Shown here one piece after another: positions 38,036 through 64,000 of a stretch of DNA of 64,000 nucleotides. Source of the DNA: Marsupella aquatica (Eukaryota; Plantae; Marchantiophyta); NCBI GenBank assembly GCA_973895155.1, contig OZ316897.1, positions 20,339,224-20,403,223 on the forward strand, written 5' to 3'. Position 1 is the first letter of the stretch. Each line of letters begins with the position of its first letter. A program made the position numbers and the translations under genes. Under the pieces are notes generated by a model. It made no database searches. It saw only the letters and a list, made by a program, of their open reading frames with translations, and was not told the DNA's origin.

Positions 38036-39342
38036 ATGTGTCACGGAGATATTTGCACAGTTCAGGCAAAGGGAGAACTGTACTCAACAGCCATGTGTCC
38101 AAAGAAAATATGGTGGATCCAGGTTACAAAAATTAGTTCGAGGACCCCCTGAGACAGATAAACTTGAATACATTCAACAAATTGGATCAATGAAAGAGCA
38201 CTCTTGCCCATCCCTTCATTCATAGTGGAAATGAGAGCTACGGGTACATATATCTGCAACTGTGGTTTAAGGGTTTCCCGGCCTGCAAGACATTTGCCTA
38301 CTCCATCTGTTAGTAGGAGGAATTGCCAAATAATGTACGTAGGATTTGTTTGTAACTTACAGGAGGAATATTTAATATTCCTACTAAATTCACCAAAAAC
38401 TGGCTTGGGTGAGAGGGCAAATTGTGAGATCTAAGAGAATAGGGGTAGCCATTAGCTTTGTCATGTTATCTCAAGTCATCAAGCCATTCCCTTTGTCATC
38501 TCAAGCCATCTAAAATGTATCATCTACAACTGCGATTACCACTTGGAAACCCAACAGTTTCTTTTTACTTTATCAAATATTTATTACAAAACTTTGGAAA
38601 CTCAACAGTTTGTTTTAACTTCACCAAATACATGTTACAAAACCTTGGAAGCCCAACAGTTTGTTTCTACTTCCTCTAGCCGTGTGTCTATTTGAAAATC
38701 TTTGGAAATTAAAAAAACTATCATTTAATGCAAAAAACTGATATATCAATTCTAGAACTTCCAAATGTTAATTTCTCTTTACCTCATTCTTTGTTTGTTT
38801 CAACTTTACTTTTCAGTTTTTTTTATCATTTTTACAGTTACCGGGATTGACAGTTTTTTATTGCCTTATCACAAACACGAACCATCAGGTTTTGTTCTTC
38901 TTTCACATATATCTAGATTTTCTTGTTTGTGACCATTCCTGCTGATGTGGCTCAACGTGGTGCCAGGGATTTTGGAAGGAACTTCCCATGGGGGTCCGTA
39001 ATTAGTCAGGTAACCCAAATTAGTCAATTATAATGTGCCCCCCTTCCATATGATGTCTCTCATATTCACCACATCATTGTGCCTTCAGCTAGGTCTACCC
39101 CATCCATGCCTCCTAGGCCAATCTGCCACTTGTCTTCGTGGGAGCATCTCTAGCCCAGGAAGGAGTCCATATTCCCAAGTGTGGTTATGGGAGTGAGAGG
39201 ATTGTGACGTGGTTTAACTACAAAACCACAGTAGACCCTAATTAAAAAGCATTAGGGTGAACCACGTATCTCTCTGTGTTGACTCTTGTGCGTTGGATGG
39301 TTCGTGGGCTTGCCGTTGTGATTGTCGTCTATGCTCAACAAT

Positions 39343-39354
39343 TGGTATCAGAGC
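39343..39354 (+). promoter_or_regulatory. Primer binding site (initiator tRNA-Met) of Copia A
   Basis: TGGTATCAGAGC 2 nt after the LTR end. Confidence 0.92.
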
Positions 39355-40876
39355 ATGCCTGGGAGGTGACGAGGTTTTTTCGTGACGGTTTTCCAGCGTT
39401 CATTGTTGGTGTTGCATTCGGGGTTTCGTCGCATGAAACTCGAATGTGTGTGGCTGAGCGAATAGGTTAGTGAGAGGGCTTTCTAACGATGGTTAGAACT
39501 CGCTGATCGGTATCCGTGGTGCGAAGGAATTGAAGTTTGCGTCGTTCAGGGTTTATTCATGTTCGACGGGATTTTGGGGGAGAGACCAGAGATTGTTTTT
39601 TCAACGGTGTGAGCTGTGCGGTGTGGGAGGCATTGCATGTTATAGCTCAAGTTGAAGGTTGAAGCGAGCTGGTCGTTTTGGTACCTGGTTTGCTGACATT
39701 TGTGGAGCGAGTGCGTCGTGACGAGTGAAAGTTGAGTTCTGGTTTTTGACAAGCTATGGTGCTTGTTTTTCCCTGAACCGGATTACTCATCGTGACGCTT
39801 GACTCGGAGGAATAAACGCGAAGTGCTTAGGCTCAACGGAGAGATCGTGGTGAGGCGATCATTTTGAGTCCGGGATTGGCCCTTGACGCAGAGAGAGTAA
39901 GACACGGCGAAGGTTTTCTCTTCTCTGGTGGAGCTCCAGATGTGCCGGTGCAATTTGGCAACATTTTCATGTCGGCGGTCATCACTTTTCTCATTGGAAA
40001 CCGAAGTGGAGGCAGCTGAGGTTTGTAACACAGCCTTTGTGTCATTTTTTGGCACATTTTAAGGTTAGTTTAGGGCTTTTTTTGCCCCCATACGGCCTGT
40101 ATACCTTCAAATCCTGACAAACCTACTTTGCCATATGCCCCGGCGCGCGCCCCGGCCTCCCACACCCCTTTAAGCGCAAAAATGTGCTTTTTCTGGTAAA
40201 AATACGGCCCAAAACGCCCTTATACGGCCCGAATATGCGAAAATGTGCACATTTTGACCCCTTTAAAAGCGTTTTTTCACGTTTTTTTGCACTTTACACG
40301 CGATTCTGGTCGCGAATATGCGCGCGTGGCCGCGAATATGTGCGCCTTTTCCAGGGGCTTTAAGACCCCTTTAAAGTGCTTTTTTCTGAATTTTGTTTTC
40401 TCTCCTCCTCCTCATTGGTTGTACCGCATCCCGGGCCCTATGACCCTCCATTTTAACCGCTTAGACAGGGGGAACGGCCCCCTATGAGACTTGTCGGACT
40501 GTGTGGGAATATTCCCAAAAAACAGAGAGCTGTTTTTCGGCCGTCCGACAAAGATTCCGTCCGCCGAACGGTAACTTTTTTGGTTCTTTTTTGGCGAGGT
40601 CATAGCCATTGAAGTTGAAAACGCGGCGCACCAATCACATCGCAATTCCGACGACGGGTTGTATTTGGTATTTTGGTTATTCCCTGAGGTGGTCAAAACG
40701 GGGGAGTTTCCCAAGGTTTTACCCACCTCGACCAAAATTTGAATAACTTTTCCGTCAAATTTTGATTTTGATTTCGGTTTTCAGTATTGGACTCCTAGCT
40801 TCGTGGGCTACGCGACGGTGTTGAGTTTCGAGTTTTTTGAGAAGTTGTGAAAAACAACATTTTTTGTGATTTTCTC

Positions 40877-43800
40877 ATGAGTGATTCGGAGGAGTTTTTC
40901 GAAGACGTGGAACTTGAAGCATGAGGATCACCGCGGTGGTTTGAGGAGTAGAGAGAGGAGCAGGAGGAAGAGCACGTGACACCGATACCATCACCGGTGC
41001 GGCGTGTGGTGGAGGAAGCAGTACTACTACCAGAGCTCACGGTAGTGCCAAAGAAGAAGATGGGCTTCAAGCTTGGGGGACCCAAGTATGAAGTGACAAA
41101 GTATGATGGGCGCTCTGACTACTTACTATGAGAGAAGCAGGTGAAGGGAGTGCTCTATGCGTCAGGGATGGGCCAACTGCTGAGCCCTCGTGAAGACGAT
41201 GTTGATGAGAAAAATGGGACCGCATGCATGAGCAGGGAGTGTGGTGTGTTACACTCTATCTCATGCCTCCCATCATCAAGCAGTTGGGTGCACATAAGGA
41301 TTGCATGTCCTTGTTTGCGGAATTGCAGAGCAAGTATCACCGCAAGGAGTTGTCGAACCAGCTCTACACTTCCTACAAACTGATGAGTTTCAGGATGAAG
41401 GAATCCGGTACGAAGTTGCAAGACCATGGAGATGCTTTCAACGACATGGTCGTTGACTTGGAAAACCTTGGGGAGACTTTGAATGATGAGACGAAGGCTC
41501 TGCAGCTTCTCAGTTCATTGCCTCCATCTTACCAGTCCCTATCACGAGTGTTGTTGCATCGTGATAGGGATACCATTTCATACAATGACGTGGTAAGTTC
41601 TCTGCTTAGTGATGATCTTCAGCAGAAGATGCACATTACGTCACAGCCTTCATCATCTGGTGCCGCCCTCAATGTTAATCGTGGGAGGAGTATGCAGCGA
41701 CCAACTAGGGACCGTAGAACCCAGTTTAGATCTAAATTCAGATCTAGGTCTAGGGGTAAATCCCCTCAGAGGAGGCAGGTGACATGTTGGAAGTGCAACC
41801 AAGTTGGACACTTCAAGCGAGACTGTAAGGAAAAGACAGCGGAAACGTCATCGGCAAATGTGGCTAGGGCTGATGGAGAAGCTGATTTACTCAATGAGTA
41901 TGTTTTATGAAGCCGGGGGTATGCCCTGTGCACGTCATCTAGGAGAGCAGATGATGTATGGATTCTTGATTGTGCTTGCTCTTTTCATATTTGTTACATT
42001 CGTGAGTTTTTTAGTTCTTACTCTGTTTTAAACGGTTCAGTTCTGATGGGAAATGATCACTCTTGTCAAATTGAGGGAATTGGGTCTTTGAAGATTCAAA
42101 TGTTTGATGGCGCTGTGCGCACAGTGTCTGAAGTCAGGTATGTACCTGGCATGCGTAAGAATCTGATTTCACTCGGTGTGTTGGATTCAAATGGTCATCA
42201 ATGGAGCGTTATTGATGGTGAACCTCAAGTCAGGTCGAGAGAGACAGTGATTTTGAAGGGGAGCAGACAGAAGAATTTGTATGTGTTATAGGGCAATACT
42301 GTATGTGGAGAGGCCAATGTAACCAAGTCTCACGAGGAGATGACTCAACTATGGCATTCACGGCTAGACCACATGAATGAGAAGGGTTTGGCTATCTTAC
42401 GGAAGAATAGACTCATTTCTGATTTGCAATCTTGTAAATTAGAGTTCTGTGAGCATTGCATTCTTGGAAAGCAGCATCGTCGTGCTTTTGGTGTTGGAAC
42501 TCATCATTCCAAAGCGGTTCTTGAGTACATACATAGTGACGTGTGGGGTCCATCCCCGACTCCCTCACACTCTGGAAAGTTATACTATGTATCATTTATT
42601 GACGATTACTCAAGATTTGTGTGGATTTATTTCATGACGCATAAGTCTGATGTCTTGTCCATTTTTAAGAAGTGGAAGGCCTAGGTGGAGAATCAGATTG
42701 GAAACACGATCAAGTGTTTGGATACAAGGGTGAAGAGTCTGAGGTCAGACAACGGTGGGGAGTACACTTCAGTGGAATTTGAAGAGTATTGTTCAGAACA
42801 GGGGATAACTCATCATCTCACCATAGTTTATACTCCGCAGCAGAATGGTGTCGTTGAGAGGCTCAATCAGACACTGTTGGAGCGGTTACAGAGTATGTTG
42901 AGCCAATCGGGTTTACCACAAGAATTTTGGGCAGAAGCTGTCAATACCGCAACTTATTTGGTAAATCTTTCTCCTTCTAGTGCTATAAATTTCAAAACGC
43001 CGTTTGAGATGCGCTATAAGCGGAAAGCAGACTATCATGGCTTGGTAGTTTTTGGAAGTGATGCATATACTCTCACACCGGAGCAGAATAGGACCAAGTT
43101 GGATCCTACCTCCAAGAAATGTGTTTTTCTTGGGTACCAAAGTGGTGTGAAAGCCTATAGGCTATGGGATCCTATTGCCTGTAAGCTCGTTGTCAGTAGG
43201 GATGTTTCCTTCAATGAATCCAGATTATTGAAGGAGGGGGAGAATACTCAAGTCTTCCGTACTGACAAAGGAAAATCTCATATCCCGGATCTCATTGAGG
43301 GGGAGATTGGTCATGAGGGGCATGACCGGAGAGAAGGAGTTGCTCCAATTATGGAGTTGGTTCCTGTGCCAAAGGAACCAGAGGAGTTTGTTGATGCTGA
43401 TGAGCAGCAAGTGGATGCTGCTGAGCTTCAAATTGTACCAGCACACACAGATCAACCGGAGTCATCGGCTAGAAGAGCATCTGGTTGCACTGTACGCGCT
43501 CCACCAAGGTATGGACAGTGGGTTGATTCATCTCAATTGCAAGAGGAGGACTTTGTTACTGATGATGAGGGTGACGCGTTGATTTTGGAAGAAGGGGAAC
43601 CTTCTTCATTTCATGAAGCAAGTGCTTCAAAGGAGAAGCAGGAGTGGGTTGTAGCAATGCACACGGAAATGCAGTCACTGAAGGACAACAAAACTTGGGA
43701 GCTTGTCAAGCTGCCTGAGGGACAGCAAGTGGTGGACAGCAAGTGGATATACAAGCTGAAGGATCAGTCCATAGGAGGTGGATCGAAGGTCTATAAGGCT

Positions 43801-44785
43801 AGGTTGGTAGCCAAGGGATTCACATAGGAAAAAGGTGTGGATTACAATGAGGTCTTCTCACCAGTTGCTAAGTACTCAACAATACGGCTAGTGTGTGCTT
43901 GTTGTTATGTTTGGTCTGTTGCTAGATCAGATGGATGTTGTCACAGCTTTCCTCTATGGCACCTTGGAAGAGGTGATCTTCATGAGACAGCCGCTAGGTT
44001 TTGTGAAGAAAGGGCAAGAGGATTTGGTTTGCAGATTGCTGAGATCCTTGTACGGGTTGAAGCAGTCACCAAGACAGTGGAATAAGCGGTTTGATGATTG
44101 GATCCGTACACAAGGCTTTCACAGGAGTGTGCTTGACCCGTGTGTGTATCTTAAACCGATGAAGAATGTTGTTTTTGGGTTCATTGTTTTAGTACTTTAT
44201 GTGGATGACATGCTTATTGCGGCCAAGGATAGGTTTGAGATTGTTAAGCTCAAGGCACTGCTTAGTGTAGAGTTTAAGATGAAGGACTTAGGGCCAGCTA
44301 AGAGAATTTTGGGTATGGAGATCACTAGGGACTTGAAGGCTAGTAAGCTATGGTTGACGCAGAGCAGTTATGCGAGGAAGGTAATTGCAAGGTTCAACAT
44401 GGGGGATAGCAAGCCAGTAAGTACCCCGTTGGCTCCACACTTCAAGTTGTCATCAGCTTTCTGTCCTACAGATGACACAGAGAAGGGGTTGATGTCAAAG
44501 GTTCTGTATGACAAGGCAGTGGGGAGTCTCATGTATTTGATGAATTGCACTAGACCTGATCTTGCCATGGCTATGGGCAAGGTGAGCAGGTACATGTCGA
44601 ATCCAGGGAAGGTACACTGGGAAGTAGTGAAGTGGATTATTCGATATTTGAAGGGTACCATGGATCATGGTCTATTGTTTGATGCACATGCTGATAATGC
44701 TAGATCATTGATGGGCTATGTAGATGCTGACTATGCACAGGATCTGGATCGGAGGAGGTCAACAACAGGTTATGTGTTCATACTT
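40877..44785 (+). pseudogene. Copia A gag-pol with multiple premature stops and frameshifts
   Basis: Zinc knuckle CWKCNQVGHFKRDC, WILDCACSFH, HSDVWG, RSDNGGEY, YVDDML. Stops at ~40922, 42289, 42682 and 43825 where copy B is open. Confidence 0.92.
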
Positions 44786-46997
44786 CACTAGAAGAAACCG
44801 AGCCTTGTTGAGACCAGAAATTGTGACTATTTTTAGTCCTTGTGACACCAATGTGACTTCCTCAACCGTGACCCTGGTTGAGACCGCACAAGTTATCTAA
44901 ATGGTGACTAAAATGTGGAAAGTCACTAATACTACTGTACATTGTGACATGGATGATCAATACCCAAACTATGACTAGGTGCTGACTAAAATAGAGCATA
45001 AAACCACACATCTAATGTGACTATACTGTGACTACCATCAGTCATCCCTCTCTTACTACCATGACCTCCGATGAACTGAGATTACTGGTGTTTGCGACTA
45101 AGTTGTGACTATGTGTAGTCATTTCAGAAGTATCAGTTTTAACATCTCCAAGTTGTCAACACATCCTTTGGATCTGGTGTTAGTAGTATTTATAACTAAG
45201 ATCGTTGAAGGAAACTACAGGGCCTAGTAATGAACATGACTTATAAGGCGATTGTTGAGGACTTATGGGTCTTGTGTTAGTATTTGTGGTATAATTGTGA
45301 GATGCACTCTTGTCTATGACTATTTTATTCTAGTCATAGTTTTCAAAGTATCGTGCATTCATGACAATTGCACGAGTATAATGAAACATAAGGTGCATTC
45401 AACACATTCAAAGACATGATACGGAATGAGTTGAACACATTTTCAAAATGAAGCATTCATTGCAACAGAATTTATCCAAATTATAGTTCACAATGATACA
45501 AAACTAATGCGATCAATTCATGATCTTGCAAAATGTCTGTGCATCTGCAATACATGTCACTTGCCTATCCAACGATTAATATGTGCAAACCGTACTTTTC
45601 TTCGCTCAAACCGTTGGTATCGTATTACGGGGTCGTGGAGGGACGCTATTTGGAGGATTTCCACACCTAAGGATGAGTATGTTTGATTCCGCTCCTGGAA
45701 GTGTACTTTTTTATCAAGTCTACCGACTGGTCTCTCCGTTTTTGATCAAGTCCAAGAGACTGGTCCTACCATCTACAACTCATGCCCACCGGGTGAGTGC
45801 TGTCACCACCCCCCTCTCATGGGCAAGCATACAAACGTTTACAATAAGGTTTGAACACTAGTGACAAGGGCAAATGTTTCCACAATGAAACTGACCACAT
45901 GCACTAGGGGAGGAAAACAAACAACACAAGCAACAACAAGTGACACACAAAATATTGGAACCTCAAGCCAAATCCATATCTCTTGGTGTTTCCCGTAACA
46001 CATGCAAGGGCAACCCGGCCTCCTGCCGTCTGCCCAACTCCTGCCTCCCGGGGACAAGTGCTACGTTCTCCACCTCACTACTCTGACTTGAATTTCTCCT
46101 AATCGGTGCGCTACAAAAGCTACTTAACAGCATCAAAGCACTACATTGAGTTCCCCCCTAACTACTTCGGGGCTCTCCCCCTAATACCGAAAAAACCACA
46201 CCAAAGCACCCCTCATGGGGTCACAACGATGGCGGCTACCCTAGCGGCACCGCTAAAACCCTGCACTAAGAAATCCCTAAACTAAAAAGGCATGCGGCAC
46301 ACACATGTTGCTAAAACCCTAAACCCTAAACAAGGGGCCGACGGTGCCTTCGACGGCGCCCCAACTGTACTCCGTGAACCCTGAAATTGCAAGGCACCCC
46401 ACAATGGCTGAAACTAGGTGCCCTATCAACTGTACTTTTGAGCTCACCCTTGGATAGCCCTTCTCCTCCTGATCCCGAATCACTCAGCCGCACTCGCAAC
46501 GGACATCGGACGCCTGAGTTATGGTTGTTTCCGTATCGCAAAAACATAATTTCGTCGGGCCATAACTTGCTCATCCTGGCTCCGTTTGAGGAGCGCCGCC
46601 TCTTGTTGGAATCAGCTCCGCGAGCTCTTTCCAACAAGCCCGTGAGTGACCCCTCACAAAAAAAGTTGGAAATCCAGAGGCTGTACAACCACATCCGTGC
46701 GACTATCTACTCCTCCTCTTCTTCACTCTCGGTGCCCTGGCTTGTGCCCCGTGAGTGGGCCTCCTCTTCATCACTCACGGGAGTGAGTGCCACCTCACTT
46801 TTCTTCTTCTTTACCGGGGTACCCTTCGTGCTGCCGCTCCCTTGCTTCCTCAAAGTGGCCAAGGCCTGCCACGCCTTGATGTACCCCTCACCAATGGTGT
46901 CCTTCCATAGGGTAGCCTCTTCTCCGGACCGCAACTCCAACGGTAGAACTTGCCCTGTGGCCATGGGAGTCCCGGGGTGACAGACCTGGGTGGCATC

Positions 46998-47508
46998 TGT
47001 TGAGCATAGACGACGATCGCAACGGCAAGCCCATGAACCATCCAACGCACAATAGTCGACACAAGAGATACGTGGTTCACCTCCTTGAGGCTACGTCCAC
47101 GGGAACACACAAGAGAGCTTTACTGAACTCTAAGCCCGTCGGCTATACCGAGTCTCCACAGTGTAAGCTCTCCCTATCTCTCAAGTGGCTCCATAACAAT
47201 GAGCCTTGGTTCTACCTCTCCAAGCACACATGCCTCTTATGATATAGTGTGCAACTTAGTTGTACCTAACCACATAGTTGTACCTAATCACGTAGTTGTA
47301 CCTAACCACATAGTTGTACCTAATCACGTAGTTGTACCTAACCACATAGTTGTACCTAATCACGTAGTTGTACCTAACCACATAGTTGTACCTAATCACG
47401 TAGTTGTACCTAACCACGTAGTTGTACCAACCCACGTTGTTGTACCAACCCACGTTGTTGTACCAACCACGTCATACCTAACCTAGACGTAAGAGTAAAT
47501 ACCCAACA
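46998..47508 (-). repeat. 3' LTR of Copia B
   Basis: Direct repeat of 52714-53224, preceded on the minus strand by the PPT AAGGGGAAGAT (47519-47509). Confidence 0.97.
47257..47472. repeat. 18-bp tandem array (~12 units) in the LTR U3; also at 52973-53188
   Basis: Alternating tagttgtacctaaccaca and tagttgtacctaatcacg units, then gttgtaccaacccacg variants. Confidence 0.95.
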
Positions 47509-47699
47509 ATCTTCCCCTTGACTCTGGTCTAGGGGAGAGTAATACTGCCAATGTATATGATCCCTCAGCGGGAAGTTCTGGACAGAAACCAAACCGGTTT
47601 CCCTCTCTAACTAGAGCAAACCAGAACTAAGCCGTAGCCTAATACATAGGAATGAGGAAGAGCATATATCAGTAATTACAATGAATGTTTAAGAAAACT

Positions 47700-50600
47700 C
47701 TACTTGTGATGCAATTGCAAAACCTGCAATACGTCACGGTGTCTAGAGAAACTCTCCAAAGGAATCATTTTGGTAAATGCGTCAGCCGGGTTGAGTTTAC
47801 CATCAATCTTGACTAGCTCAAACAAATTATCAGACACAGCCTGCCTGATAAAATGGTACCTGACGTCAATGTGCTTCACTCTGCTGTCCATCACCTGGTT
47901 CACAGCAAGGTGGAGCGCACTTTGACTATCACAATGGAGCTTCACATTCCCCTGTGGCAATCCCATTTCAGTGATAAGTCTATCCAACCAAATCGCTTCC
48001 TTTGCTGCTTCCGCAGCTGCAACATACTCCGCTTCTGTAGTAGACTGAGCAATACACTTCTGCAAAGTAGACCTCCAACTTATGCATCCACCGCCAAGTG
48101 TGAACACGTATCCTGTTGTTGATCTCCTTCGGTCCAAATCTTGTCCATAGTCAGAATCTACATAGCCAATCAATGATCTAGCATTCTTTGCATTCGCATC
48201 AAATAAAAGACCATGATCCACGGTACCCTTCAAGTACCTGATAATCCACTTCACTGCTTCCCAGTGTACCTTCCCTGGATTCGACATGTACCTGCTCACC
48301 TTGCCCATAGCCATGGCAAGATCAGGTCTAGTGCAAGTCATCAAATACATGAGACTCCCCACTGCCTTGTCATATGGAACCTTTGACATCAACCCCTTCT
48401 CTGTGTCATCCGTAGGACAGAACGCTGATGATAACTTGAAGTGTGGAGCCAACGGGGTACTTACTGGCTTGCTATTCTCCATGTTGAACCTTGCAATTAC
48501 CTTCCTCGCATAACTGCTCTGCGTCAACCATAGCTTGCCAGCCTCCAAGTCCCTAGTGATCTCCATACCCAAAATCCTCTTAGCTGGCCCTAAGTCCTTC
48601 ATCTTAAACTCTGCACTAAGCAGTGCCTTGAGCTTAACAATCTCAGACCTATCATTGGCTGCAATTAGCATGTCATCCACATAAAGTACTAAAATAATGA
48701 ACCCAAAGACAACATTCTTCACCGGTTTCAAATACACACAAGGGTCAAATACACTTCTGTGAAAACCTTGTGACCGAATCCAATCGTCAAACCGCTTGTT
48801 CCACTGTCTTGGTGACTGCTTCAACCCATACAAGGATTTTAGCAATCTGCAAACCAATTCCTCCTGTCCTCTCTTCACAAAATCTAGCGGTTGTCTCATG
48901 AAGATCACCTCTTCCAATGTGCCATAGAGGAAAGCTGTGACAACATCCATCTGATCTAGGAGCAGACCAAACATTACAACAAGTACACACAATAGTCGTA
49001 TTGTAGAGTACTTAGCAACTGGTGAGAAGACCTCATTGTAATCCACACCTTTCTCTTGTGTGAATCCCTTTGCTACCAATCTAGCCTTGTAGACCTTCGA
49101 TCCACCTCCTATGGAATTATCCTTCAGCTTGTAAATCCACTTGCTGTCCACCACTTGCTGACCCTTAGGCAGCTTAACAAGCTCCCAAGTTTTGTTGTCC
49201 TTTAGTGACTGCATCTCCGTTTGCATTGCTGCAGTCCACTTCTGCTTCTCTTTTGAAGCACTTGCCTCATGAAATGAAGAAGGTTCTCCTTCTTCCAAAA
49301 TTAACGCATCACCCTCATCATCAGCTGTAAAATCATCCTCTTGCAGTTGAGATGAATCAACCCACTGTCCATACCTTGATGGAGCGCGTACAGTGCGACC
49401 AGATGTTCTTCTAGCCGATGACTCCGGTTGATTTGCGTGTGCTGGTACAATTTGAAGCTCAACAGCATCCACTTGTTGCTCACCAGCATCAACAAACTCC
49501 TCTGGTTCCTCTGGCACAGGAACCAGCTCCATAATTGGAGCAACTCCTTCTCTCCGGTCATGCACCTCATAACCAATCTCCCCCTCAACGAGATCCGGGA
49601 TAGGAGATTTTCCTTTGTCAGTACGGGAGACCTGAGTATTCTCCCCCTCCTTCAATAATCTGGATTCATTGAAGGAAACATCCCTACTGACAACGAGCTT
49701 ACAGGCAATAGGATCCCATAGCCTATAGGCTTTCACACCACTCTGGTACCCAAGAAAAACACATTTCCTGGAGGTAGGATCCAACTTGGTCCTATTCTTC
49801 TTTGGTGTGAGAGCATATGCATCACTTCCAAAAATTACCAAGCCATGATAGTCTGCTTGCCGCTTATAGCGCATCTCAAACGACGTTTTGAAATTGATAG
49901 CACTAGAAGGAGAAAGATTTACCAAATAAGCTGCGGTATTGACAGCTTCTGCCCAAAATTCTTGTGGTAAACCTGATTGGCTCAACATACTCCGTGACCG
50001 CTCCAACAATGTCCGATTGAGCCTCTCAGCGACACCATTCTGCTGCAGAGTATAAACTGTGGTGAGATGGCGAGTTATCCCCTGTTCTGAACAGTACTCT
50101 TCAAATTCCATTGAAGTGTACTCCCCGCCGTTGTCTGACCTCAGACTCTTCACCCTTGTATCCAAACACTTGATCGTGTTTCCAGTCTGATTCTCCACCT
50201 GGGCCTTCCACTTCTTAAAAATGGACAAGACATCAGACTTATGCGTCATGAAATAAATCCACACAAATCTTGAGTAATCATCAATAAATGATACATAGTA
50301 CAACTTTCCAGAGTGTGAGGGAGTCGGGGATGGACCCCACACGTCACTATGTATGTACTCAAGAACCGCTTTGGAACGATGAGTTCCAACACCAAAAGCA
50401 CGACGATGCTGCTTTCCAAGAATGCAATGCTCACAAAACTCTAATTTACAAGATTGCAAATCAGAAATGAGTCCATTCTTCCGTAAGATAGCCAAACCCT
50501 TCTCACTCATGTGGCCTAGCTGTGAATGCCACAGTTGAGTCATCTCCTCGTGAGACTTGGTTACATTGGCCTCTCCACATACAGTATTGCCCTGTAACAC

Positions 50601-50972
50601 ATACAAATTCTTTTGTCTACTCCCCTTCAAAATCACTGTCTCTCCCGACCTGACTTGAAGTTCACCATCAATAACGCTCCATTGATGACCATTTGAATCC
50701 AACACACCGAGTGAAATCAGATTCTTACGCATGCCAGGTACATACCTGACTCCGGACACTGTGCGCACAGCGCCATCAAACATTTGAATCTTCACAGACC
50801 CAATTCCCTCAATTTGACAGGAGTGATCATTTCCCATCAGAACTGAACCGTTTGAAACAGAGTAAGAACTGAAAAACTCACGAATGTAACAAATATGAAA
50901 AGAGCAAGCACAATCAAGAATCCACACATCATCTGCTCTCCTAGATGATGTGCACAGGGCATACCCCCGGCT
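47700..50972 (-). CDS. Copia B pol (protease, GAG-pre-integrase, integrase, RT, RNase H), in frame with gag across a single TGA
   Basis: WILDCACSFH, WHSQLGH...CEHC, HSDVWG, SDNGGEY, YKARLVAKG, YVDDML, YVDSD, STTEAEY, HIDVRYH, NPADAFTK. Confidence 0.96.
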   Translation of the reverse strand, partial: SRGYALCTSSRRADDVWILDCACSFHICYIREFFSSYSVSNGSVLMGNDHSCQIEGIGSVKIQMFDGAVRTVSGVRYVPGMRKNLISLGVLDSNGHQWSVIDGELQVRSGETVILKGSRQKNLYVLQGNTVCGEANVTKSHEEMTQLWHSQLGHMSEKGLAILRKNGLISDLQSCKLEFCEHCILGKQHRRAFGVGTHRSKAVLEYIHSDVWGPSPTPSHSGKLYYVSFIDDYSRFVWIYFMTHKSDVLSIFKKWKAQVENQTGNTIKCLDTRVKSLRSDNGGEYTSMEFEEYCSEQGITRHLTTVYTLQQNGVAERLNRTLLERSRSMLSQSGLPQEFWAEAVNTAAYLVNLSPSSAINFKTSFEMRYKRQADYHGLVIFGSDAYALTPKKNRTKLDPTSRKCVFLGYQSGVKAYRLWDPIACKLVVSRDVSFNESRLLKEGENTQVSRTDKGKSPIPDLVEGEIGYEVHDRREGVAPIMELVPVPEEPEEFVDAGEQQVDAVELQIVPAHANQPESSARRTSGRTVRAPSRYGQWVDSSQLQEDDFTADDEGDALILEEGEPSSFHEASASKEKQKWTAAMQTEMQSLKDNKTWELVKLPKGQQVVDSKWIYKLKDNSIGGGSKVYKARLVAKGFTQEKGVDYNEVFSPVAKYSTIRLLCVLVVMFGLLLDQMDVVTAFLYGTLEEVIFMRQPLDFVKRGQEELVCRLLKSLYGLKQSPRQWNKRFDDWIRSQGFHRSVFDPCVYLKPVKNVVFGFIILVLYVDDMLIAANDRSEIVKLKALLSAEFKMKDLGPAKRILGMEITRDLEAGKLWLTQSSYARKVIARFNMENSKPVSTPLAPHFKLSSAFCPTDDTEKGLMSKVPYDKAVGSLMYLMTCTRPDLAMAMGKVSRYMSNPGKVHWEAVKWIIRYLKGTVDHGLLFDANAKNARSLIGYVDSDYGQDLDRRRSTTGYVFTLGGGCISWRSTLQKCIAQSTTEAEYVAAAEAAKEAIWLDRLITEMGLPQGNVKLHCDSQSALHLAVNQVMDSRVKHIDVRYHFIRQAVSDNLFELVKIDGKLNPADAFTKMIPLESFSRHRDVLQVLQLHHK

Positions 50973-52007
50973 TCATAAAACATACTCATCATTGAGTAAA
51001 TCAGCTTCTCCATCAGCCCTAGCCACATTTGCCGATGAAGTTTTCGCTGCCTTTCCCTTACAGTCTCGCTTGAAGTGTCCAACTTGGTTGCACTTCCAAC
51101 ATGTCACCTGCCTCCTCTGAGGGGATTTACCCTTGGACTTAGATCTGGATTTAGATCTAAACTGGGTTCTACGGTCCCCAGTTGGTTGCTGCATACTCCT
51201 CCCACGGTTAACATTGAGGGCAGCACCAGATGATGAAGGCTGTGACGTGATGTGCATCTTCTGCTGAAGATCATCACTAAGCAAAGAACTTACCACGTCA
51301 TTGTATGAAATGGTATCCCTATCACGATGCAACAACACTCGTGATAGGGACTGGTAAGATGGAGGCAATGAACTAAGAAGCTGCAGAGCCTTCGTCTCAT
51401 CATTCAAAGTCTCCCCAAGGTTTTCCAAGTCAACGACCATGTCGTTGAAAGCATCCACATGGTCTTGCAACTTCGTACCAGATTCCTTCATCCTGAAACT
51501 CATCAGTTTGTAGGAAGTGTAGAGCCGGTTCGACAACTCCTTGCGGTGATACTTGCTCTGCAATTCCGCAAACAAGGACATGCAATCCTTATGTGCACCT
51601 AACTGCTTGATGATGGGAGGCATGAGATAGAGTGTAACACACCACACTCCCTGCTCCTGCATGCGGTCCCATTGTTTCTCATCAACATCGTCTTCACGAG
51701 GGCTCAGCAGTTGGCCCATCCCTGACGCATAAAGCACTCCCTTCACCTGCTTCTCCCATAGCAAGTAGTCAGAGCGCCCATCATACTTTGTCACTTCATA
51801 CTTGGGTCCCCCAAGCTTGAAAGTCCCCATCTTCTTCTTTACCGTGAGCTCCGGTAGTAGTACTGCTTCCTCCACCACACGCCGCACCGGTGATGGTATC
51901 GGTGTCACGTGCTCTTCCTCCTGCTCCTCTCGCTGCCCCTGAAACCTCCGTGGTGATCCTCGTGCTTCAAGTTCCACGTCTTCGAAAAACTCCTCCGAAT
52001 CACTCAT
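50973..52007 (-). CDS. Copia B gag, 344 aa
   Basis: UBN2-type gag core (KYDGRSDYLLW, LLSSLPPSY) and CCHC knuckle CWKCNQVGHFKRDC. Confidence 0.95.
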   Translation of the reverse strand: MSDSEEFFEDVELEARGSPRRFQGQREEQEEEHVTPIPSPVRRVVEEAVLLPELTVKKKMGTFKLGGPKYEVTKYDGRSDYLLWEKQVKGVLYASGMGQLLSPREDDVDEKQWDRMQEQGVWCVTLYLMPPIIKQLGAHKDCMSLFAELQSKYHRKELSNRLYTSYKLMSFRMKESGTKLQDHVDAFNDMVVDLENLGETLNDETKALQLLSSLPPSYQSLSRVLLHRDRDTISYNDVVSSLLSDDLQQKMHITSQPSSSGAALNVNRGRSMQQPTGDRRTQFRSKSRSKSKGKSPQRRQVTCWKCNQVGHFKRDCKGKAAKTSSANVARADGEADLLNDEYVL

Positions 52008-52699
52008 ATGAGAAAGTCACAAAAAATGTTGTTTTTCACAACTTCTCAAAAAACTCGAAACTCAACACCGCCGCGTAGCCCACAAAGCTAGGAGTCCAAT
52101 ACTGAAAACCAAAATCAAAATCGAAATTTGACGGAAAAGTTATTCAAATTTCGGTCGAGGTGGGTAAAACCTTGGGAAACTCCCTCGTTTTGACCACCTC
52201 AGGGAATAACCGAAATACCAAGTACAACCCGTTGTCGGAATTGCGATGTGATTGGTGCGCTGCATTGCCAACTTCAATGGCTACGACCTCACTTGTCAAC
52301 AACGAATGTTGATCAATTGCACTTGGTGCCGTCACCAAGTCCAACAAGGTAATTGATTTTGCTTAGCCTTCCTCTTTGCATCAAAGAGCCAATCCCGGAC
52401 TCAAAAACAATCGTCTTGCCTCAATCTCTCCGTTGAGTCAAAACACTTGACGCTTCTCCCTCCGAGTCGATTGCCAACTTTCTTCACAAAATCCAGAACG
52501 ACGAAAACTTAGATCTCTCTGCACCACGAGCTCCGTTCAACGATTTCTTCACACCGTTAGAAAGCTCTTGCCCTGATCTATCCGTTGAGCCCATAAACTC
52601 CAAGTTCCATGCGATGGAACTCTGGAAAATCCACCAACACTCAACGCTGGAAAAACCGTCATGAAATCCCGTCACGAACACACGTCACCTCCCAAGCAT

Positions 52700-52711
52700 G
52701 CTCTGATACCA
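52700..52711 (-). promoter_or_regulatory. Primer binding site (tRNA-Met) of Copia B
   Basis: Minus-strand TGGTATCAGAGC 2 nt after the 5' LTR. Confidence 0.95.
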
Positions 52712-52713
52712 AT

Positions 52714-53224
52714 TGTTGAGCATAGACGACGATCGCAACGGCAAGCCCATGAACCATCCAACGCACAATAGTCGACACAAGAGATACGTGGTTCACCTCC
52801 TTGAGGCTACGTCCACGGGAACACACAAGAGAGCTTTACTGAACTCTAAGCCCGTCGGCTATACCGAGTCTCCACAGTGTAAGCTCTCCCTATCTCTCAA
52901 GTGGCTCCATAACAATGAGCCTTGGTTCTACCTCTCCAAGCACACATGCCTCTTATGATATAGTGTGCAACTTAGTTGTACCTAACCACATAGTTGTACC
53001 TAATCACGTAGTTGTACCTAACCACATAGTTGTACCTAATCACGTAGTTGTACCTAACCACATAGTTGTACCTAATCACGTAGTTGTACCTAACCACATA
53101 GTTGTACCTAATCACGTAGTTGTACCTAACCACGTAGTTGTACCAACCCACGTTGTTGTACCAACCCACGTTGTTGTACCAACCACGTCATACCTAACCT
53201 AGACGTAAGAGTAAATACCCAACA
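52714..53224 (-). repeat. 5' LTR of Copia B
   Basis: Direct repeat of 46998-47508. Confidence 0.97.
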
Positions 53225-55169
53225 GCATCCCCGTACTGACCTGAGCCTCCCGTAACGATTTCCGTACCTCCCAGAGCTTCTTCTCCAAGCCCTTGCTCTT
53301 CTCTTGACTCTTCTTGGCTCCATCCAACAAGGGCCCATACTTCCCACTAACCTCCTTCACCACCATCTCAATAGCCTGGGAGATCAAATCCGGGGAAAGT
53401 GTGGAGCTAGGTGTGCTGGGGCTCTTCCGTTTCCCCAGGCTCAAGGCCTCACTCCTCTTTGCTCGTGTCTCAAAGGCGGCCACCTGACTCCGTAGTGCTC
53501 CCACCTGGTTTCTCCACTCCACCACTTCTCCAGAATTCTGCTTCTCTTTGGCCAATGCTTGTCTCAACGCTCCCACCTCTTCTGCTTCCTTGGCCTTGGT
53601 GGACAAGGCTCCCTTCAAGTTGGAGATCTCTACGTGAGCTGCTTGGAGAAGCTTAACCTTCTCATGAATGGTCCCCTCCTTGGCCTTGATCACCTCCTTC
53701 AGAGACAGGGTACTCTGCTCTAACGTCTCTACTCTGGCTGAGGCGTGCTTGAGAGAATCTCTCAATGCGTGGATTAGCTTGAGTCCCTCATGGACTCCCT
53801 CTCTGAAATCCCGTAGCTCTGCCAGGTAAACATCCGGAATGTTGTAGACCAGGGGCTTTTTCGGATCTCCTACGAGTGATTCAAGCCACTCCAACATGTA
53901 GTCCTCATCCTGGTTTTCTTCTCCTCTATCTTCATCCCCACCAGCCGACGATGATTCCTCCGTGAGCTTCCCTATAACGGTAGTGGCAATACTCCGGATC
54001 TCCGTGGTGAGAGATGATCCCGTGTCTTCCTGTCCCGGGGAACCAATCAACCCTTGCCCTGGCCAATACAAATGACCCCATCAAATGTACAGCCCCACCT
54101 GGTTTCACACTCCCGGGATCAGCGGCCAACAGCTTCTTCAACCCGTAGTACCACCATCCGTACACATGGGCTGGGTGGTTCTTGATGTCCATAGCTACCA
54201 CGAAATGCTCTTCACTCACCACCCCGGATTGCACGTTGCCAAGGACCCGTTGATGAACCTTGGCCAGGAATCCCTTATACTCAACATCCTTGACAGCGGA
54301 AAGAGGGATGGCAGTGGTGGAGGTGGGATTAATCACCCAAGTGGCCACCATCTTCAACGTGAGTTCTCCCCTAATGTGCCGAGGTGTGAATGAGAATTTC
54401 TGATTCCCCAGAAATAGCAGCCTAGCCAACTCCACATGGGGCACTACACGTTTGAGACATTCAAAGTAGATTCCCTCCGTTCGTAACTCCATCCCAGCCT
54501 CATTGTCCCAGCTCTTCCCCGGAGGGATGGTAATCTCCACCTTCATGAATTCTGTAACCCCGGTGGCTTGGAAAATATTCCGACAATCCTCCATCACTTT
54601 GGCGGAGGTCTTGGGATAAATTCGACGAAAAATCCTCCTACCCACCGGTGTGGAACCTGCTGCCAATCCCGTGCTCATCGTAGCTTCTCTCTCTTCTCTC
54701 TCCCTTGCAATCAAAGTCTCCACGTAGTCACGGTAAGCAGCCTTGTATCTCCGAATGCGTGCCACACTAAACTCCGGTTGATCTAGCATTCATGCATCCT
54801 GAAATCAAATTCTCAATCACCAAATCCCGTCACCCGTAGCAATGTCAATTCCCTGGCCCGAAACAGCCCCCGTAGCCCGATTAATTTATTTCTCTCAATC
54901 CCCTCCGTCGTCACTCCATGTTGCTGTCGTTAATGCCCGGACAGTCCCCGCAATCCCCCATGACTGAGCCTTGAGAAGAATTGGAGAGAAAGCTCAAATA
55001 ATTGTAACATAAGGAGAAAGCTTTCGGCAATAAGGGAGAGAAACTCGAGTTTGCTTTCGGCAAGAGAAGGGTCGTGTGAAAAGGAGAAAAGAGGGGAGAG
55101 AAAAAAAACAACGAAAACCCCCCCGGGAGCAGCTTTTCGCCATGCGCCCCGGAGCCCTCCTTTGTCCCG

Positions 55170-55622
55170 ACTCGCGGGAGTCCCCCTTCCTCGCAGCTTG
55201 CGCCTCACGGCCCGCAGCTCGCGGACGCTTCCCCTTCCTCGCACGGCAGCTCGCAGCTCGCGGCTCGCGGCTCACTCGCGGACGCTTCCCCTTCCTCGCA
55301 CGGCAGCTCGCGGACCTCCTTAGGAGGGATTTATTTTTAAACCCCCCCATACTCCTCACTCGCGGCAGCTCGCAGCTCGCGGCTCGCGGCTCACTCGCGA
55401 ACGCTTCCCCTTCCTCGCACGGCAGCTCGTGGATCTCCTTAGGAGGGATTTGTTTTAAAACCCCCCCATACTCCTCACTCACGGCAGCTCGTAGCAGCTC
55501 CCGGCTCGCGGCTCACTCGCGGACGCTTCCCCTTCCTCACACGGCAGCTCGCAGCTCGCGCCTCGCACCTCGCACCTCGCGGAAGGATTTAATGGGGGTT
55601 TAATTAAACCCCCCATACTCCT
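55170..55622. repeat. GC-rich compound tandem repeats near the 5' end of the putative Gypsy LTR
   Basis: Recurring gcagctcgcggctcgcggctcactcgcggacgcttccccttcctcgcacgg and ...aaaccccccatactcctcactc units. Confidence 0.85.
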
Positions 55623-56015
55623 CCAGTCCTGCCTGAGTGTTGCTTTAGAAGGGGTGTTACCAAAAAATTAAAAATGCTTATTTCCCGGACTTCCTTACCT
55701 TCCCGGAAAGTCACAATTTTAAACCCCCCCAGGTTTTTGCCCCATAATTAACCCGAGTCTAGACAAAACTGTTGGGGTCTCCGACTATCCCGAGATGCTT
55801 TAAAAAAAACTTTATAGATTTAAAGAACATTAAAAAAAACTTGCATCTATGGGCTTATTTATTTATAGGTGTCTTGCTGGTGACACTAATGGTGATTTAC
55901 CGTGGCGGGACCCCGTCACATAGCTCCTCTCTTAATTGCAAAGCGTCCCCGCGAGCACCATACTCTTCCTCCATGTAGTATTTCTTTAGGCGTTCTTGAT
56001 TGATCCGTGTGTTGA

Positions 56016-57466
56016 GTAGTCAAAATGATGATTGCTCTAAGTATGAACGGGTTCAGCCTCCCAAGCCTCTGCAGCACATCATATGTGAGAACTCCTTCAT
56101 CCCATAGCTTCTTCAATTCTTCCACAAGGGGAGCCAGGTACACGTCTATGTTGGCAGACACAGTAGAGTCTGGCCCTGGTAGCAACAGAACTAGGAGAAC
56201 AAAAAATCTCTTTGTAGTCATCCAAGGAGGAAGGTTGTAATTCAAAATAGTTACAGGCCAGCATGAGAACTTATTGTTCTTGTCTCCAAATGGGTTTACC
56301 CCATCCAATGACAACCCAAGCCTCACATTCCTTGGCTCTGTTGCAAATTCTGGAAACATCTCATCTATGAGTTTCCACTGTCTTGAATCGGCAGCATGTC
56401 GTTGCAGCCCATCCGAGCTTTTTTTTGAAGCTGCCCAAGTCATCATCTTTGAGATAGCAAGGCTTCTAAACATCCGTTGAAGCCTAGGAATGAGTGGAAA
56501 ATGACGAAGTACCTTTGCTGGAACTAAAGACTTCCCTGCGTTTCAATACCTGTGCTTCCCACAGACAATGCATCTCAAGAGATCCTTATACTGATTTCTG
56601 AAGAGAATATGCCCATCAGGACAAGCATGGATGGAATCATAGTTCAATCCAAGATTAGATATGCATCTTTTAGCCTCATACATGCTTTTTGGCAAAAGAT
56701 TATCAGGCGGTAGCACAGTCAGTCGTAGGAAGGCCAACAACTCAGAAACAAAAATGTTGGGGACATTGTGGTTGCCGCAAATGTTCAGGAACATGATGAC
56801 AAATGCTAGTTTGGAACACTTGCTACCGGGATAAAGGGGGTGCCTGCATTCCTGAATTTGCACAGGAGAGCCAAACATCCAATCATGCCCAGGGGTTTCT
56901 TGCCCTATCTCAAACTCATCTAGAGGATTGTCAACTGGGGGCACACTTGCATCAGCATCAGTGTTGTCTTCATTGTCCAACCCATCATGAAATGCATCCA
57001 AGTTCTGAAAGATGTCTCGCACCATCTGTTCCACATGAATGCCTTCGTCACGTGGCTCTGCCCGACGAATGTCCTGTTGGTGGTCAGTGATCCCACATAG
57101 ACTAGCAACATCATTGTCCAAATCACCTGGCAGATCCACCTCCGACCGTCGCACAACATTGGCAGCCTCAAAATCTGCCCTCCACTCCTCATCAGACGTA
57201 TCTTCCTCCGCTGGATCATTCCAAACTCGATGTCGTGGATCTCACCCATTCACCACAATATGCCGCCAAACCTCACTGAGGACCCTGCTATGAGTCCCTT
57301 GGCAGATTTCACAAGGACATCTCATCCTACTGGCTCCTGCAAGTCTATTTCTTAATGTTTCACGCTGCCAAAGCTTATTGTCATGGCGTGCAACCCTTAT
57401 GGGATGATGTAAAGGCAATGGCTGTGCATTGCGTTGGGTCTGGGGAGGGTGGTGACCAGGGTGCAT
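56016..57466 (-). pseudogene. CACTA Tnp2/TnpD transposase (transposase-associated domain plus Transposase_21), two in-frame stops, 3'-truncated
   Basis: CPCEIC...VWRHIVVNG*, LYPGS, IHACPDGHILFR, VPAKVLRHFPLIPRLQRMF, RHAADSRQWK, PRNVRLGLSLDGVNPF, WPV...NYNLPPW, DVYLAPLVEELKKLW. TGA at 57242 and 56543. Confidence 0.93.
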
Positions 57467-57622
57467 TGTAACAGACTGCAAACTCTGCAGTGATGAACAG
57501 TGGGTGAAAAGGGTAACAAAGTAGCCTACTAATGGTCAAAAGAAGAAGTGCATTGTTGTCATGTGAATTGGTCATGTACCTGAGTTGAAGTTGTCAACAA
57601 TACAAACAGCAAAGGATGTTTG

Positions 57623-57739
57623 CCCAGCTCTGTAAACACCCCGTTCAGTACGTACTGTCTCCCCAGCTCTGGAAACACCCCGTTCAGTACGTACTGTCTC
57701 CCCAACTCTGTAAACACCCCGTTCAGTACGTACTGTCTC
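57623..57739. repeat. 39-bp x3 tandem repeat, each unit with the 12-bp palindrome CAGTACGTACTG
   Basis: cccagctctgtaaacaccccgttcagtacgtactgtctc occurs three times. Confidence 0.93.
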
Positions 57740-58010
57740 CGTAGGGGCCTTGCAACACTGTATGTAGACATGAGGACAAAGCCACATCCCTGGTTAAGGA
57801 AAAGCCAACACGACACACAACACAGAAGATAGAATTTGAACAGAATTTGAACAGCATCCAAAGCAAAGAGATGATTTAATTGTGGAATGACATGATGAGA
57901 GGACAATGAATGTTTTTATTACAGATGGAATTTGAAGGAAACAAGTTCATCACTCAACAAGTATTCATTGTCTAAATCACTAACACTGTCATGGCTCTTC
58001 ATCAGATAAA

Positions 58011-58920
58011 CTAATCACTGTATTCGCCAGTGTTAGAAGAGTATTCGTCCTCATCACTCGTGGTTTCCCACTCTGTGGTTGTGTCCCTGAGTACATCATT
58101 AACTAATGGTTCATCACCTCCATCCCAGCTCTTACGTCTTTTGTACTTAGGCTTCTGAGGCCACACCTCATTCAGATCAAAGGTTGCTTCATCAAGTACA
58201 TTGCCTCTATCTAGTGACTCCACTTGCACGTGAAACCACTTGCAGGCCCCTACTAACCATCATCCGAACTAAAGTCTTTCCAACCATACGACAAAGTCTG
58301 GAATAGGATAGGGTGACCACATGAGTGGTAGAATCTATGAGGCGTTCATGCACCTCACCCTGCCTGTGCAGAATTTTGTGCTTGAAACGTCTCAACCTTC
58401 CCGGTGGAATCCCAACATCCACAAACATGACCTTAACCCCCCTAAACATGACCCGCACATGGGGGTTTATGACAGGCATAGGATGCTCTAAGAGCTCTTG
58501 CCTAGTTCCCTGTGAAGCATCATCATATTGTGCTTTGAACTGCAAAATGTCTTTGGTGGCCCGTTTGTTCAACCATATATCATACTCTGTTGGGTCCTGA
58601 AGGGTGCTATATTCTAGACAGTCATACATCCAAGAGACATCAACAACCTTAAGACCATAGGACTCTCTGTAAAAGTTGATGGTGCTCCAAAACCACTTCT
58701 GCATCACATCACACCAATCATCAGCGATGACGTGTGTGGTGTCTCTACTGATTTGTTTCAACACTATCCCTCCATTCTCAACCAATTGTCTTTTCATGAA
58801 CTCCCATCTATTCGTGTCCTCCCCCCTAGTATGAGTGACAAAAATTGCTCTAACTCCAGCAAACGGTGTAGGAGGAAGGTCTGAGGCAAGCCTCTTCAGT
58901 GTCCTACTGGAGGTAGCCAT
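58011..58920 (-). pseudogene. Tandem BRCT-domain protein (plant DNA polymerase lambda-like BRCT) with a basic and acidic tail; frameshift at ~58225
   Basis: BRCT1: FAGVRAIFV...NGGIV...DTTHVIA...VVDVSWMYDCL...PTEY. BRCT2: FRGVKVMFVDVGI...RQGEV...STTHVV...QVVSR/ESLDRGNVLDEATFDL. Confidence 0.8.
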
Positions 58921-59234
58921 GTGCAATGCAGCCTTTTGACAGTGTGAAGGAAAAAGTGGACACCCCTGATATCACCTGCAGATCCATGAGAATGCCTAAA
59001 TATGCAATTCATACAAGGATTGCAACAGCAACAGAACAAACTTGGGTATCGCCACATTCACATTCACCATGACATCCATAAACATGCATGATATTCATGT
59101 ACATAGTGGGAATAACCATAATACAATAGGCAAGTTTGGAGTCCTGACTAGTTTAAAATGTGCAGGTATCCTGCCTAAGACAAAACTTGGCTAACCCCTA
59201 AAGTGAACGCATGGTAAATATAAACTCCACCACA

Positions 59235-59912
59235 TCAAAGCCAGGAGATATGATCATGGGCAGGTGTGCCAAGTACAGGGTCAATGGGATGCCTCGGGCA
59301 GTAAATCATCCACCGCTGCTGCCCGTGCGCAGTGTGCAGCCAGGGTTCTCTGTCTGGTGCAAAACCATGACGTTGACTCTCTCTTAAGCAACCCTCATGC
59401 CAGGTGGTGGGACATCTCAAGCATTGAATTGCCTTTGCCATATGAGGGTCTTTGTGATCTTGCTTGCATGCTGTACATGCATGCATGGGGCAAGACTCCA
59501 CATCAAGCGGCAAGCACTCATGACAATAAAAACAAACACAATATGGCTGAGGGCACTGTCTGATTGCTGGAGAGACCACGCCACACTTGAAACACTTGTG
59601 TATCTTATTCTTGCAATCTACACAAAACCAGGGTTCACCATCCTTGCCTGGTGCAATAACCACTGCAGGACACCTGCCTACAGTGTCACCAATTCTGTAG
59701 ACATAGTGAAAATGACGATGGCAAGACCCATCACACACGGCCAGATCTCCATGGAAATCACATATCGCACACAACTAGGGACTACACTGACCCTTCTCAA
59801 TGTCTGACCAGCGTTCAATCTTCAAGCTATGTGGCTCAATTGCCTCATTATGTTTCTGCTTTTTTTTTGTTTCAGTGGCATTTTTTACGGCTTTCCTCTT
59901 CTCCCTAGCCAT
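59235..59912 (-). pseudogene. EDM2-like multi-PHD-finger protein (~225 aa, basic NLS-like N-terminus) with one premature TAG at 59775-59777
   Basis: MAREKRK...KKKQK...SP*LCAICDFHGDLAVCDGSCHRHFH...WFCVDCKNKIHKCFKC...CPMHACTAC...CLRCPTTWHEGCL...IYCPRHPIDPVLGTPAHDHISW. Cys/His spacing and the C-terminal IYCxxHxID...TPxxDH motif match the EDM2 PHD module as recalled. Confidence 0.82.
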
Positions 59913-60329
59913 TACAAAGACTGAACATTAAACAGACAAATGTGCAAAGTTATTACTATTGCATATAGTGAACGACCCCCTTCAAATGGCAAAACAAATT
60001 ACACATGGGCAGTTCCCCTGAAGAAGCATCATTTGATAACATTGTCACCCGGACCACAACCAGTTTATTACCTCAAGTCTTGAGCCTCAATGTCCAATCC
60101 TCAGCCTGAATTCTGCCGTGTTTGTTCTGAAAACTTCTGTGATCAAATGATTTTTCAAGATTTTCAATAGCAAAGATATTTGCATCACACAAGAAAATTA
60201 GTTAGACAGTGTGAATGCAAATTTCAAAACACATAACAAAATTCAAACCACCATTTCAATTCAAACCAATTGGCCATGCATGTTACTACAGCAATAAACA
60301 AATAATTAGGCTCAACAGACAGGAGTTCA

Positions 60330-60417
60330 GAACTTGCCATTTGAGATTGACAATCTGAACTTCAGATTCAGACGAACTTGCCATTTGAGATTGACAATCT
60401 GAACTTCAGATTCAGAC
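60330..60417. repeat. 44-bp tandem duplication
   Basis: gaacttgccatttgagattgacaatctgaacttcagattcagac occurs twice. Confidence 0.9.
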
Positions 60418-63400: not shown

Positions 63401-64000
63401 TGTGGGGTGCCGTTATTGGGTATGTAACATGCATGGAGGGGAGTATATGAAGGTAAATTGTGACTATTCCCGGTTCATGGAACGATGTGTGGAGGGGGGT
63501 ACATGTTGGTTAATTTGTAGGGCATGGAAATAAGTAAAAATAACCTGCCCTTGCATATGTAACCACGGTAATACACATTAACGTCCCTTGCATATGTAAC
63601 CACGGCCAATAGTGAAGCCTTTTTGCGGTTGAATGGGGGCATGATGGCATGGTGTCTAAATTAATGGGTGCTTATGAGCAATTTTCTTGGCCTGGAATAA
63701 TCATGGAAAACTCACTAATGGTTAAAATGCATGACTTAACCATGTTTAAATAGAGTAATCTAATTATATAGGTATATCTACACTAACAATGTATTGGGTC
63801 GGATCCCATAGCTCAGGGTTTAGGTTGGTAGGTTCAAATATTGTGCTGTAAACCATAATGCTGTATTGTAGAGTCACTTGTTGAACTTCAACATAATTGC
63901 CTCAATTGAGTTGTACTTGCAACTTTCCAAATAGTTGAAAACATGACTCCCCTAAACTTCACCAAAAATCAGTCAACAAGGTGTGTGTAATTAGGTGATT

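Follow-up and report, generated by a model that had tools for sequence, protein, structure and literature searches.

Genes at the locus

Toward the end of the window, by which we mean the whole 64,000-nt stretch analyzed here, the minus strand carries a stand-alone EDM2-type PHD mini-gene (59235..59912), a tandem-BRCT gene (58011..58920), and a Tnp2 (TnpD-like) CACTA transposase gene (56017..57466). Read on that strand from the window end, the order is ∼4 kb without a recognized gene, then PHD, BRCT, and Tnp2. An earlier note on this DNA had described an intronless frame of ∼225 codons with one TAG, consisting only of a basic segment and a multi-PHD cassette, and we confirm that description. 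The frame (59912-59235) runs from ATG to TGA over 225 codons with a single TAG at codon 46 (59777-59775); its translation, MAREKRK...HDHISWL, has a Lys/Arg-rich leader (residues 1-20) followed by a cassette of 2.5 PHD fingers and an EDM2 tail motif. Only 1/20,000 base shuffles was as open as this frame, which rules out a chance ORF.

The tandem-BRCT gene begins with an ATG at 58920, is frameshifted near 58260, and occupies the gap between PHD and Tnp2. It matches the Pfam BRCT model (E 6e-11), its two repeats resemble each other (E 3e-4), and its atlas match is PTCB-BRCT (0.91). No homologue of the ORF at E ≤ 0.001 was found among 221 candidates of similar length; there is weak likeness to TopBP1 (E 4e-5) and, in the PDB, to Pol lambda (E 0.004), and a Pol-lambda origin may be kept as a weak lead. 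The single-sequence structural model of this protein was unusable (pLDDT 38).

The transposase matches PF13963 and PF02992 (E 2e-45), and tblastn with P0164-P0167 gives 48-68% identity. It contains two in-frame stops and is broken off at ∼56017, where loose ends in sequencing run X2 encode the usual Tnp2 continuation, as in P0164. Its likely ATG (57466) lies 1.77 kb downstream of the co-oriented PHD gene, much as the earlier note had placed it (∼1.8 kb); that note had missed the BRCT gene that fills the interval, the truncation of Tnp2, and the nested 10.5-kb repeat described below.

We compared four runs (X1-X4, from two studies), each sharing at least half of the stretch's words, among seven runs that contain the stretch; the other three have small shares of it, and no RNA run is listed among the seven. 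Base 59777 is G (codon CAG, not TAG) across the entire aligned depth, in all 19 contigs that cover it (5+5+6+3 per run). Contigs of X2, X3, and X4 have five extra bases across the BRCT frameshift, and 910+5 nt give 305 codons including the stop, i.e. a 304-codon frame that is intact in sister copies. Because contigs of other runs read CAG and carry the five extra BRCT bases, both the TAG and the frameshift are lesions of the window copy or its assembly.

An acceptor-like AG stands 8-55 nt before each of the three ATGs (59912, 58920, and 57466), and a shared leader for PHD, BRCT, and Tnp2, as in En/Spm, is possible; the signal is statistically weak, with such a site present within 60 nt of 75 of the 214 ATGs of the region. 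Pfam returned nothing convincing for 28 short frames of 45346-46706 and 60371-63304, and a TnpA-like gene was not located. A short tandem array of three 39-nt units occupies 57617-57740. The segment 60100-61300 looks non-coding, and in most if not all runs its summed depth exceeds that of the BRCT gene, which suggests a conserved part of a wider family or a further repeat.

Elsewhere in the window, two plus-strand immune-receptor genes with alpha/beta-hydrolase, NB-ARC, and LRR domains stand in tandem (20684-26400 and 30909-36362). Their matched blocks are 70-87% alike, and the upstream gene contains a run of near-identical 72-nt LRR units at 24407-25270. To judge from these two genes, a type with a liverwort distribution, and from the nearest named proteins, the DNA is likely that of a liverwort. 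A 411-aa minus-strand frame at 2564-3799 has RanGAP/NLRC-type LRR_6 repeats.

Element anatomy

An older Copia element (Copia A, 39256..44785, plus strand) is cut at 44785 by a CACTA terminus, CACTAGAAGAA (44786..45555, plus strand), that is preceded by CTT and begins at the exact point where Copia A ceases to match its relative. Inside this end lie 770 bases dense in short subterminal repeats, including TAGTCA 10 times against 0.57 expected. The missing 3′ part of Copia A is not present in 53300-64000. A second exact CACTAGAAGAA occurs on the minus strand at 8004-8014. We rejected another candidate terminus, CACTAATGG at 55884, which has no subterminal repeats and lies inside the nested repeat (judged by eye and by motif bins).

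That nested high-copy repeat (45556..56016, minus strand, boundaries approximate) is marked by a depth jump near 45600, reaches ∼170 × single-copy depth in X4, and separates Tnp2, BRCT, and PHD from the CACTA end by ∼10.5 kb. What look by eye like an LTR, a purine tract, and an integrase end make it the probable 3′ portion of an LTR retrotransposon that has additional ORFs. Its minus-strand ORFs include 54789-53932 and 54080-53199, one apparently split by a further insertion (compare 46378-46997, also minus); none has a convincing Pfam match. A tandem array of GC-rich units of 57-122 nt lies at 55196-55552. The insertion, a young Copia element (Copia B, 46998..53224, minus strand) with LTRs identical over 511 nt and a GCATC target duplication, is very recent; its LTRs contain an 18-nt tandem array, and its gag and pol frames are near-intact with one stop between them.

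A 14-bp stretch matching the subterminal motif at 44818 recurs on the plus strand at 63455..63468 (E 0.06), which hints weakly at a second end of the element close to the window edge or past it. The earlier placement of the PHD gene in sequence following a CACTA terminus thus stands in part: the terminus at 44786 is real, but the ∼10.5-kb nested repeat lies between it and Tnp2. Likewise, that PHD, BRCT, and Tnp2 belong to the element starting at 44786 is partly supported, because depth matches and one 14-bp motif recurs, while the opposite terminal repeat falls outside the window and a deletion and the nested repeat intervene. Because these break the element, the end at 44786 could instead be that of another copy.

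Copy number and base composition

As depth reference we used a presumed single-copy, zero-mismatch contig at 36737-37780 (∼1,080 nt), with a depth of 17 in X2 and 35.4 in X4; single-copy depth varies more than twofold in X1 and X3, and all ratios are to be read as rough classes, not copy numbers. On this scale near-identical PHD/BRCT contigs reach 3.1-3.5 × the reference depth in X2 and 4.0-4.7 × in X4, near-identical Tnp2 contigs 3.3 × and 4.6-6.4 ×, and the CACTA end 5.0 × and 5.7 ×. The PHD gene, transposase, and terminus therefore share a depth class of ∼3-6 × single-copy in both runs. Diverged relatives are more abundant: X4 has a PHD relative of 82% identity at ∼70 × and diverged Tnp2 at ∼93 × single-copy depth. 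X2 has diverged Tnp2 at ∼91 × and a summed PHD depth of ∼11-25 ×, with no PHD contig at Tnp2 depth. Diverged Tnp2 contigs (X2, X3) part from the window at 57500, short of the PHD gene. A 1659-nt contig spans BRCT and the 3′ half of the PHD gene; among the contigs examined, none connects the PHD gene with either Tnp2 or a terminus.

The CpG observed/expected ratio is 0.31 for PHD, 0.34 for BRCT, and 0.35 for Tnp2, compared to 0.72 and 0.83 for two host genes. This depletion, equal to that of the transposase, points to long methylation of the PHD and BRCT genes.

Domains and predicted reading of the PHD cassette

The mini-protein matches PF23004 (E 1e-5), PF23011, and PF22908, all NSD/EDM2-type PHD models, just under cut-offs. 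Its PDB matches are NSD2/NSD3 chains (E 2e-7), and the atlas match ranked first is an NSD-type PHD cluster of streptophytes (0.92). Marchantia Mp1g03210 (30% identity, E 2e-27) and a 1295-aa EDM2-type protein with RFD and PHD (29%, E 2e-24) align along the whole cassette, which bears out the earlier assignment to a stand-alone EDM2-type module. Likeness to NSD1/2/3 spans only profile positions ∼37-180 and does not include the EDM2 tail; we reject an NSD origin on account of this shorter match and missing tail. SET and PWWP domains are absent from the ORF and its relatives, and no protein kept from the best 150 of 267 profile matches has a SET motif. An AlphaFold model built on 41 sequences has a mean pLDDT of 86.5 and is confident from about residue 31 on. 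Structure search with the model retrieves PHD modules, the best being NSD tandem fingers (TM 0.6 on the target); the top PZP matches by Foldseek (TM ∼0.2) share the common finger type only.

Compared to the EDM2 family, the 2.5 atypical fingers and the tail motif TP-x-DH(I)-x-F/W are present and one ligand is altered: Cys replaces His in finger 2. The linker after this finger has 7 residues, not ∼27, and a 20-residue segment that follows finger 2 in EDM2-type proteins is deleted. The RFD/acidic N-terminus and the PGR and ELP domains of EDM2 are absent from the 225-aa protein. From these comparisons we take the protein to be an EDM2-derived module and not an EDM2 orthologue, because it consists of fingers only and the full EDM2 architecture is missing.

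Finger 1 keeps the G-x-L-x-x-C-D motif and has no Trp at the H3K4me3-cage position, a residue we take, by the usual PHD rules, to be typical of such cages. Because of this motif, the absent Trp, and profile matches to AIRE and CHD4 fingers, binding to an H3 tail is likely. The predicted product is a small nuclear histone-H3 reader. At 30% identity and with an altered zinc ligand, the histone specificity of EDM2 would not be simply transferable to it.

The mini-gene family and its phylogeny

A word search found three relatives among 25 candidates (81, 69, and 63% identity), and searching 1.84 billion representatives with a profile brought 267 matches, of which we used the best 150. The best seven of the 267 are only 109-245 aa; those next in rank are mostly EDM2-type proteins. 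Among the best 150, Cys and a 7-residue linker after finger 2 are found in 7 proteins, as compared to His in 119 (median linker 27), with 24 off pattern.

Search relatives, P0009, P0054, P0064, and three cluster members together make a short family of 16 proteins (109-304 aa, 19-92% identical). Across these, 26 Cys/His columns are kept at ≥70%, as compared to a median of 46% for other columns, and they persist in relatives down to ∼20-30% identity. A stop falls within five residues of the tail motif in 9 of the 11 motif-bearing members, and 8 of 16 have a MAR/MAK start-like motif. Some of the 16 may have been called incompletely on their short contigs (about 1-13 kb). Annotated proteomes are the source of none of the 16, nor was the mini-gene seen in the named liverwort proteomes matched among the best 150 of 267. 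The family is likely overlooked because it seems absent from annotated proteomes, probably through repeat masking. Metagenome scans for loci around PHD relatives gave 143 and 145 pattern matches, none confirmed.

The short relatives form one clade in three trees of chosen subsets (63, 37, and 26 rows; support 98, 100, and 100/100), from which P0009 was left out as too short. Clade members have in common the His-to-Cys swap, the loss of 20 residues, and a reading frame that ends directly behind the cassette. In the 26-row tree, from which the longest outgroups were dropped, the clade clusters on a long stem with five EDM2-like proteins of liverworts (94/100); the AU test does not reject a position among other long EDM2 proteins (p-AU 0.126). 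In trees with long non-plant rows the position of the clade is unsettled, and some group labels were inferred from protein length.

These comparisons lead us to regard the mini-gene as an old, remodelled, selected gene and not a recent EDM2 fragment. It is repeated (∼3-5 × the presumed single-copy depth). Its conserved start and stop, repetition, and CpG loss speak against an exon of a host EDM2 gene, a candidate we rejected. Nor does it look like a host fragment recently captured by a Pack-CACTA element and left to decay, given 30% identity to host-type genes, intact sister copies, and zinc ligands kept in the 16 relatives. Of the earlier proposal that a CACTA family captured the module, multiplicity, intact sisters, and gene-like conservation hold up; membership draws on depth and the 14-bp motif. 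Within the window and the contigs compared, none of the outcomes that the earlier note had named as refuting its proposal turned up.

Proposed role and alternatives

The frame, fold class, family, repetition, and position of the PHD gene are observations, and its role is a matter of interpretation. We consider it probable that the mini-gene is a selected accessory gene of the CACTA element; given that it is, we lean toward an adaptor function. Overall, an adaptor that links element proteins to nucleosomes is our best explanation, put forward tentatively. An ancestral element would have acquired its fingers from an EDM2-like gene of liverwort type; the other EDM2 domains would then have been dropped, finger 2 remodelled, and the gene kept under selection. 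Because it has no catalytic or sequence-specific DNA-binding part, the reader would have to work with a second protein, in the simplest case the transposase or some other product of the element; once bound there, it could influence which chromatin is targeted or give access to silenced ends of the element. Repair of the cuts may be the task of the BRCT protein encoded next to it. It is likely that the element brings along its own means of holding on to host chromatin. We can imagine, with less assurance, an ancient liverwort CACTA lineage in which an EDM2 reader and a tandem-BRCT repair adaptor would form a separate two-gene kit for reading host heterochromatin marks and steering or unlocking transposition, a histone-based counterpart of VANC in another superfamily. 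The insertion into Copia A, which the earlier note had thought to fit targeting of heterochromatin, carries little weight as one event in a very abundant target.

It seems rather unlikely that the gene is no working part of a CACTA element, being instead a host mini-gene family, the passively captured gene of another repeat, or a neighbour brought to Tnp2 by rearrangement. CACTA elements do capture host fragments upstream of their transposase (PMC8978399, PMC13317346), the window element is rearranged, and the depths of PHD and Tnp2 relatives are mismatched in X2. Capture would, however, have to involve a whole, intronless, conserved gene that is absent from the named liverwort proteomes among the best 150 matches, and neither the ∼70 × diverged PHD copy nor the transposon-like CpG loss fits a host gene.

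The other alternatives accept the gene as the element's own and give it a different task. As an anti-silencing decoy, the reader would cover H3K9me2 tails or compete with host EDM2-like proteins, weakening silencing of the element. A reader-only derivative of a silencing regulator would be a classic dominant competitor, EDM2 fingers bind H3K9me2 (PMC7472560), EDM2 affects silencing at over 2,000 TE loci (PMC7529245), and VANC sets a precedent for anti-silencing proteins encoded by DNA transposons (PMC13317346). VANC, though, uses element-specific DNA motifs, whereas the PHD protein, without an evident DNA-specific domain, would act genome-wide and so aid other elements; moreover, the element genes are as CpG-depleted as the transposase, pointing to long methylation. 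We judge a decoy unlikely. More improbable still is that the protein recruits ASI1/AIPP1-like proteins so that a long element transcript is read through its own heterochromatin. Arabidopsis EDM2 does act in this way (PMC7529245, PMC7472560), and the three co-oriented ORFs with their acceptor-like sites would suit such a transcript. Yet that acceptor signal is weak, the protein lacks RFD and the later domains of EDM2, and the segment after finger 2 is deleted in an already remodelled finger region, all of which weakens the earlier suggestion of EDM2-like transcript protection; we found no paper mapping the AIPP1 contact in the literature searched. The adaptor remains our preferred reading. A conserved free-standing reader of EDM2 descent would offer a defined, small, testable protein for how CACTA elements meet silenced chromatin, and would be a case of a host regulator of transposon chromatin turned to the transposon's own use.

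Comparison with known systems

By current description, CACTA elements carry a second, poorly understood ORF beside the transposase. In the main texts and passages searched, no CACTA element was reported to contain a BRCT gene or a PHD gene of EDM2 type; the fusion table of bioRxiv 10.1101/2021.11.30.470311 and repeat databases such as Repbase may list one. The main text of PMC8978399 makes no mention of PHD, term searches of PMC13547354 and PMC6839031 gave none in the text available, and a legend about Chlamydomonas elements in PMC9977147 includes PHD.

Arabidopsis EDM2, a protein with 2.5 atypical PHD fingers, binds chromatin marked by H3K9me2 and, together with AIPP1 and ASI1, promotes distal polyadenylation (PMC7529245, PMC7472560). 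The mini-protein has the same cassette and tail at ∼30% identity and is a tree neighbour of liverwort EDM2-like proteins such as Marchantia Mp1g03210 and Riccia sorocarpa KAL3685775.1. It differs in its size (∼225 aa, as compared to mostly 600-1600), in lacking RFD and the other EDM2 domains, in the remodelled ligand and linker of finger 2, and in being a single open frame in repeated DNA.

With En/Spm elements the window shares the CACTA terminus, subterminal repeats, a Tnp2 with transposase-associated domain, and extra coding DNA upstream (PMC8978399). Large En/Spm elements with 4-5 ORFs are also known from a red alga (PMC6431247). In contrast to En/Spm elements with such extra domains as Transposase_24 or Peptidase_C48, and to Pack-CACTA, the extras here are whole, conserved, and separate reader and BRCT genes. 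Captured readers of PHD or chromo type are frequent in transposons, and some of them direct insertion (bioRxiv 10.1101/2021.11.30.470311); most of these, including the MAGGY chromodomain, are fused to transposon proteins, whereas the reader in the window is free-standing and of EDM2 origin. VANC and KIU of VANDAL (Mutator-like) elements are comparable as separate accessory genes of plant DNA transposons, with an anti-silencing action on chromatin, and KIU includes a captured host domain (PMC13317346, PMC10398659). They belong to another superfamily, and we found no sequence relation to them; VANC recognizes DNA motifs, whereas the PHD protein is predicted to read histones.
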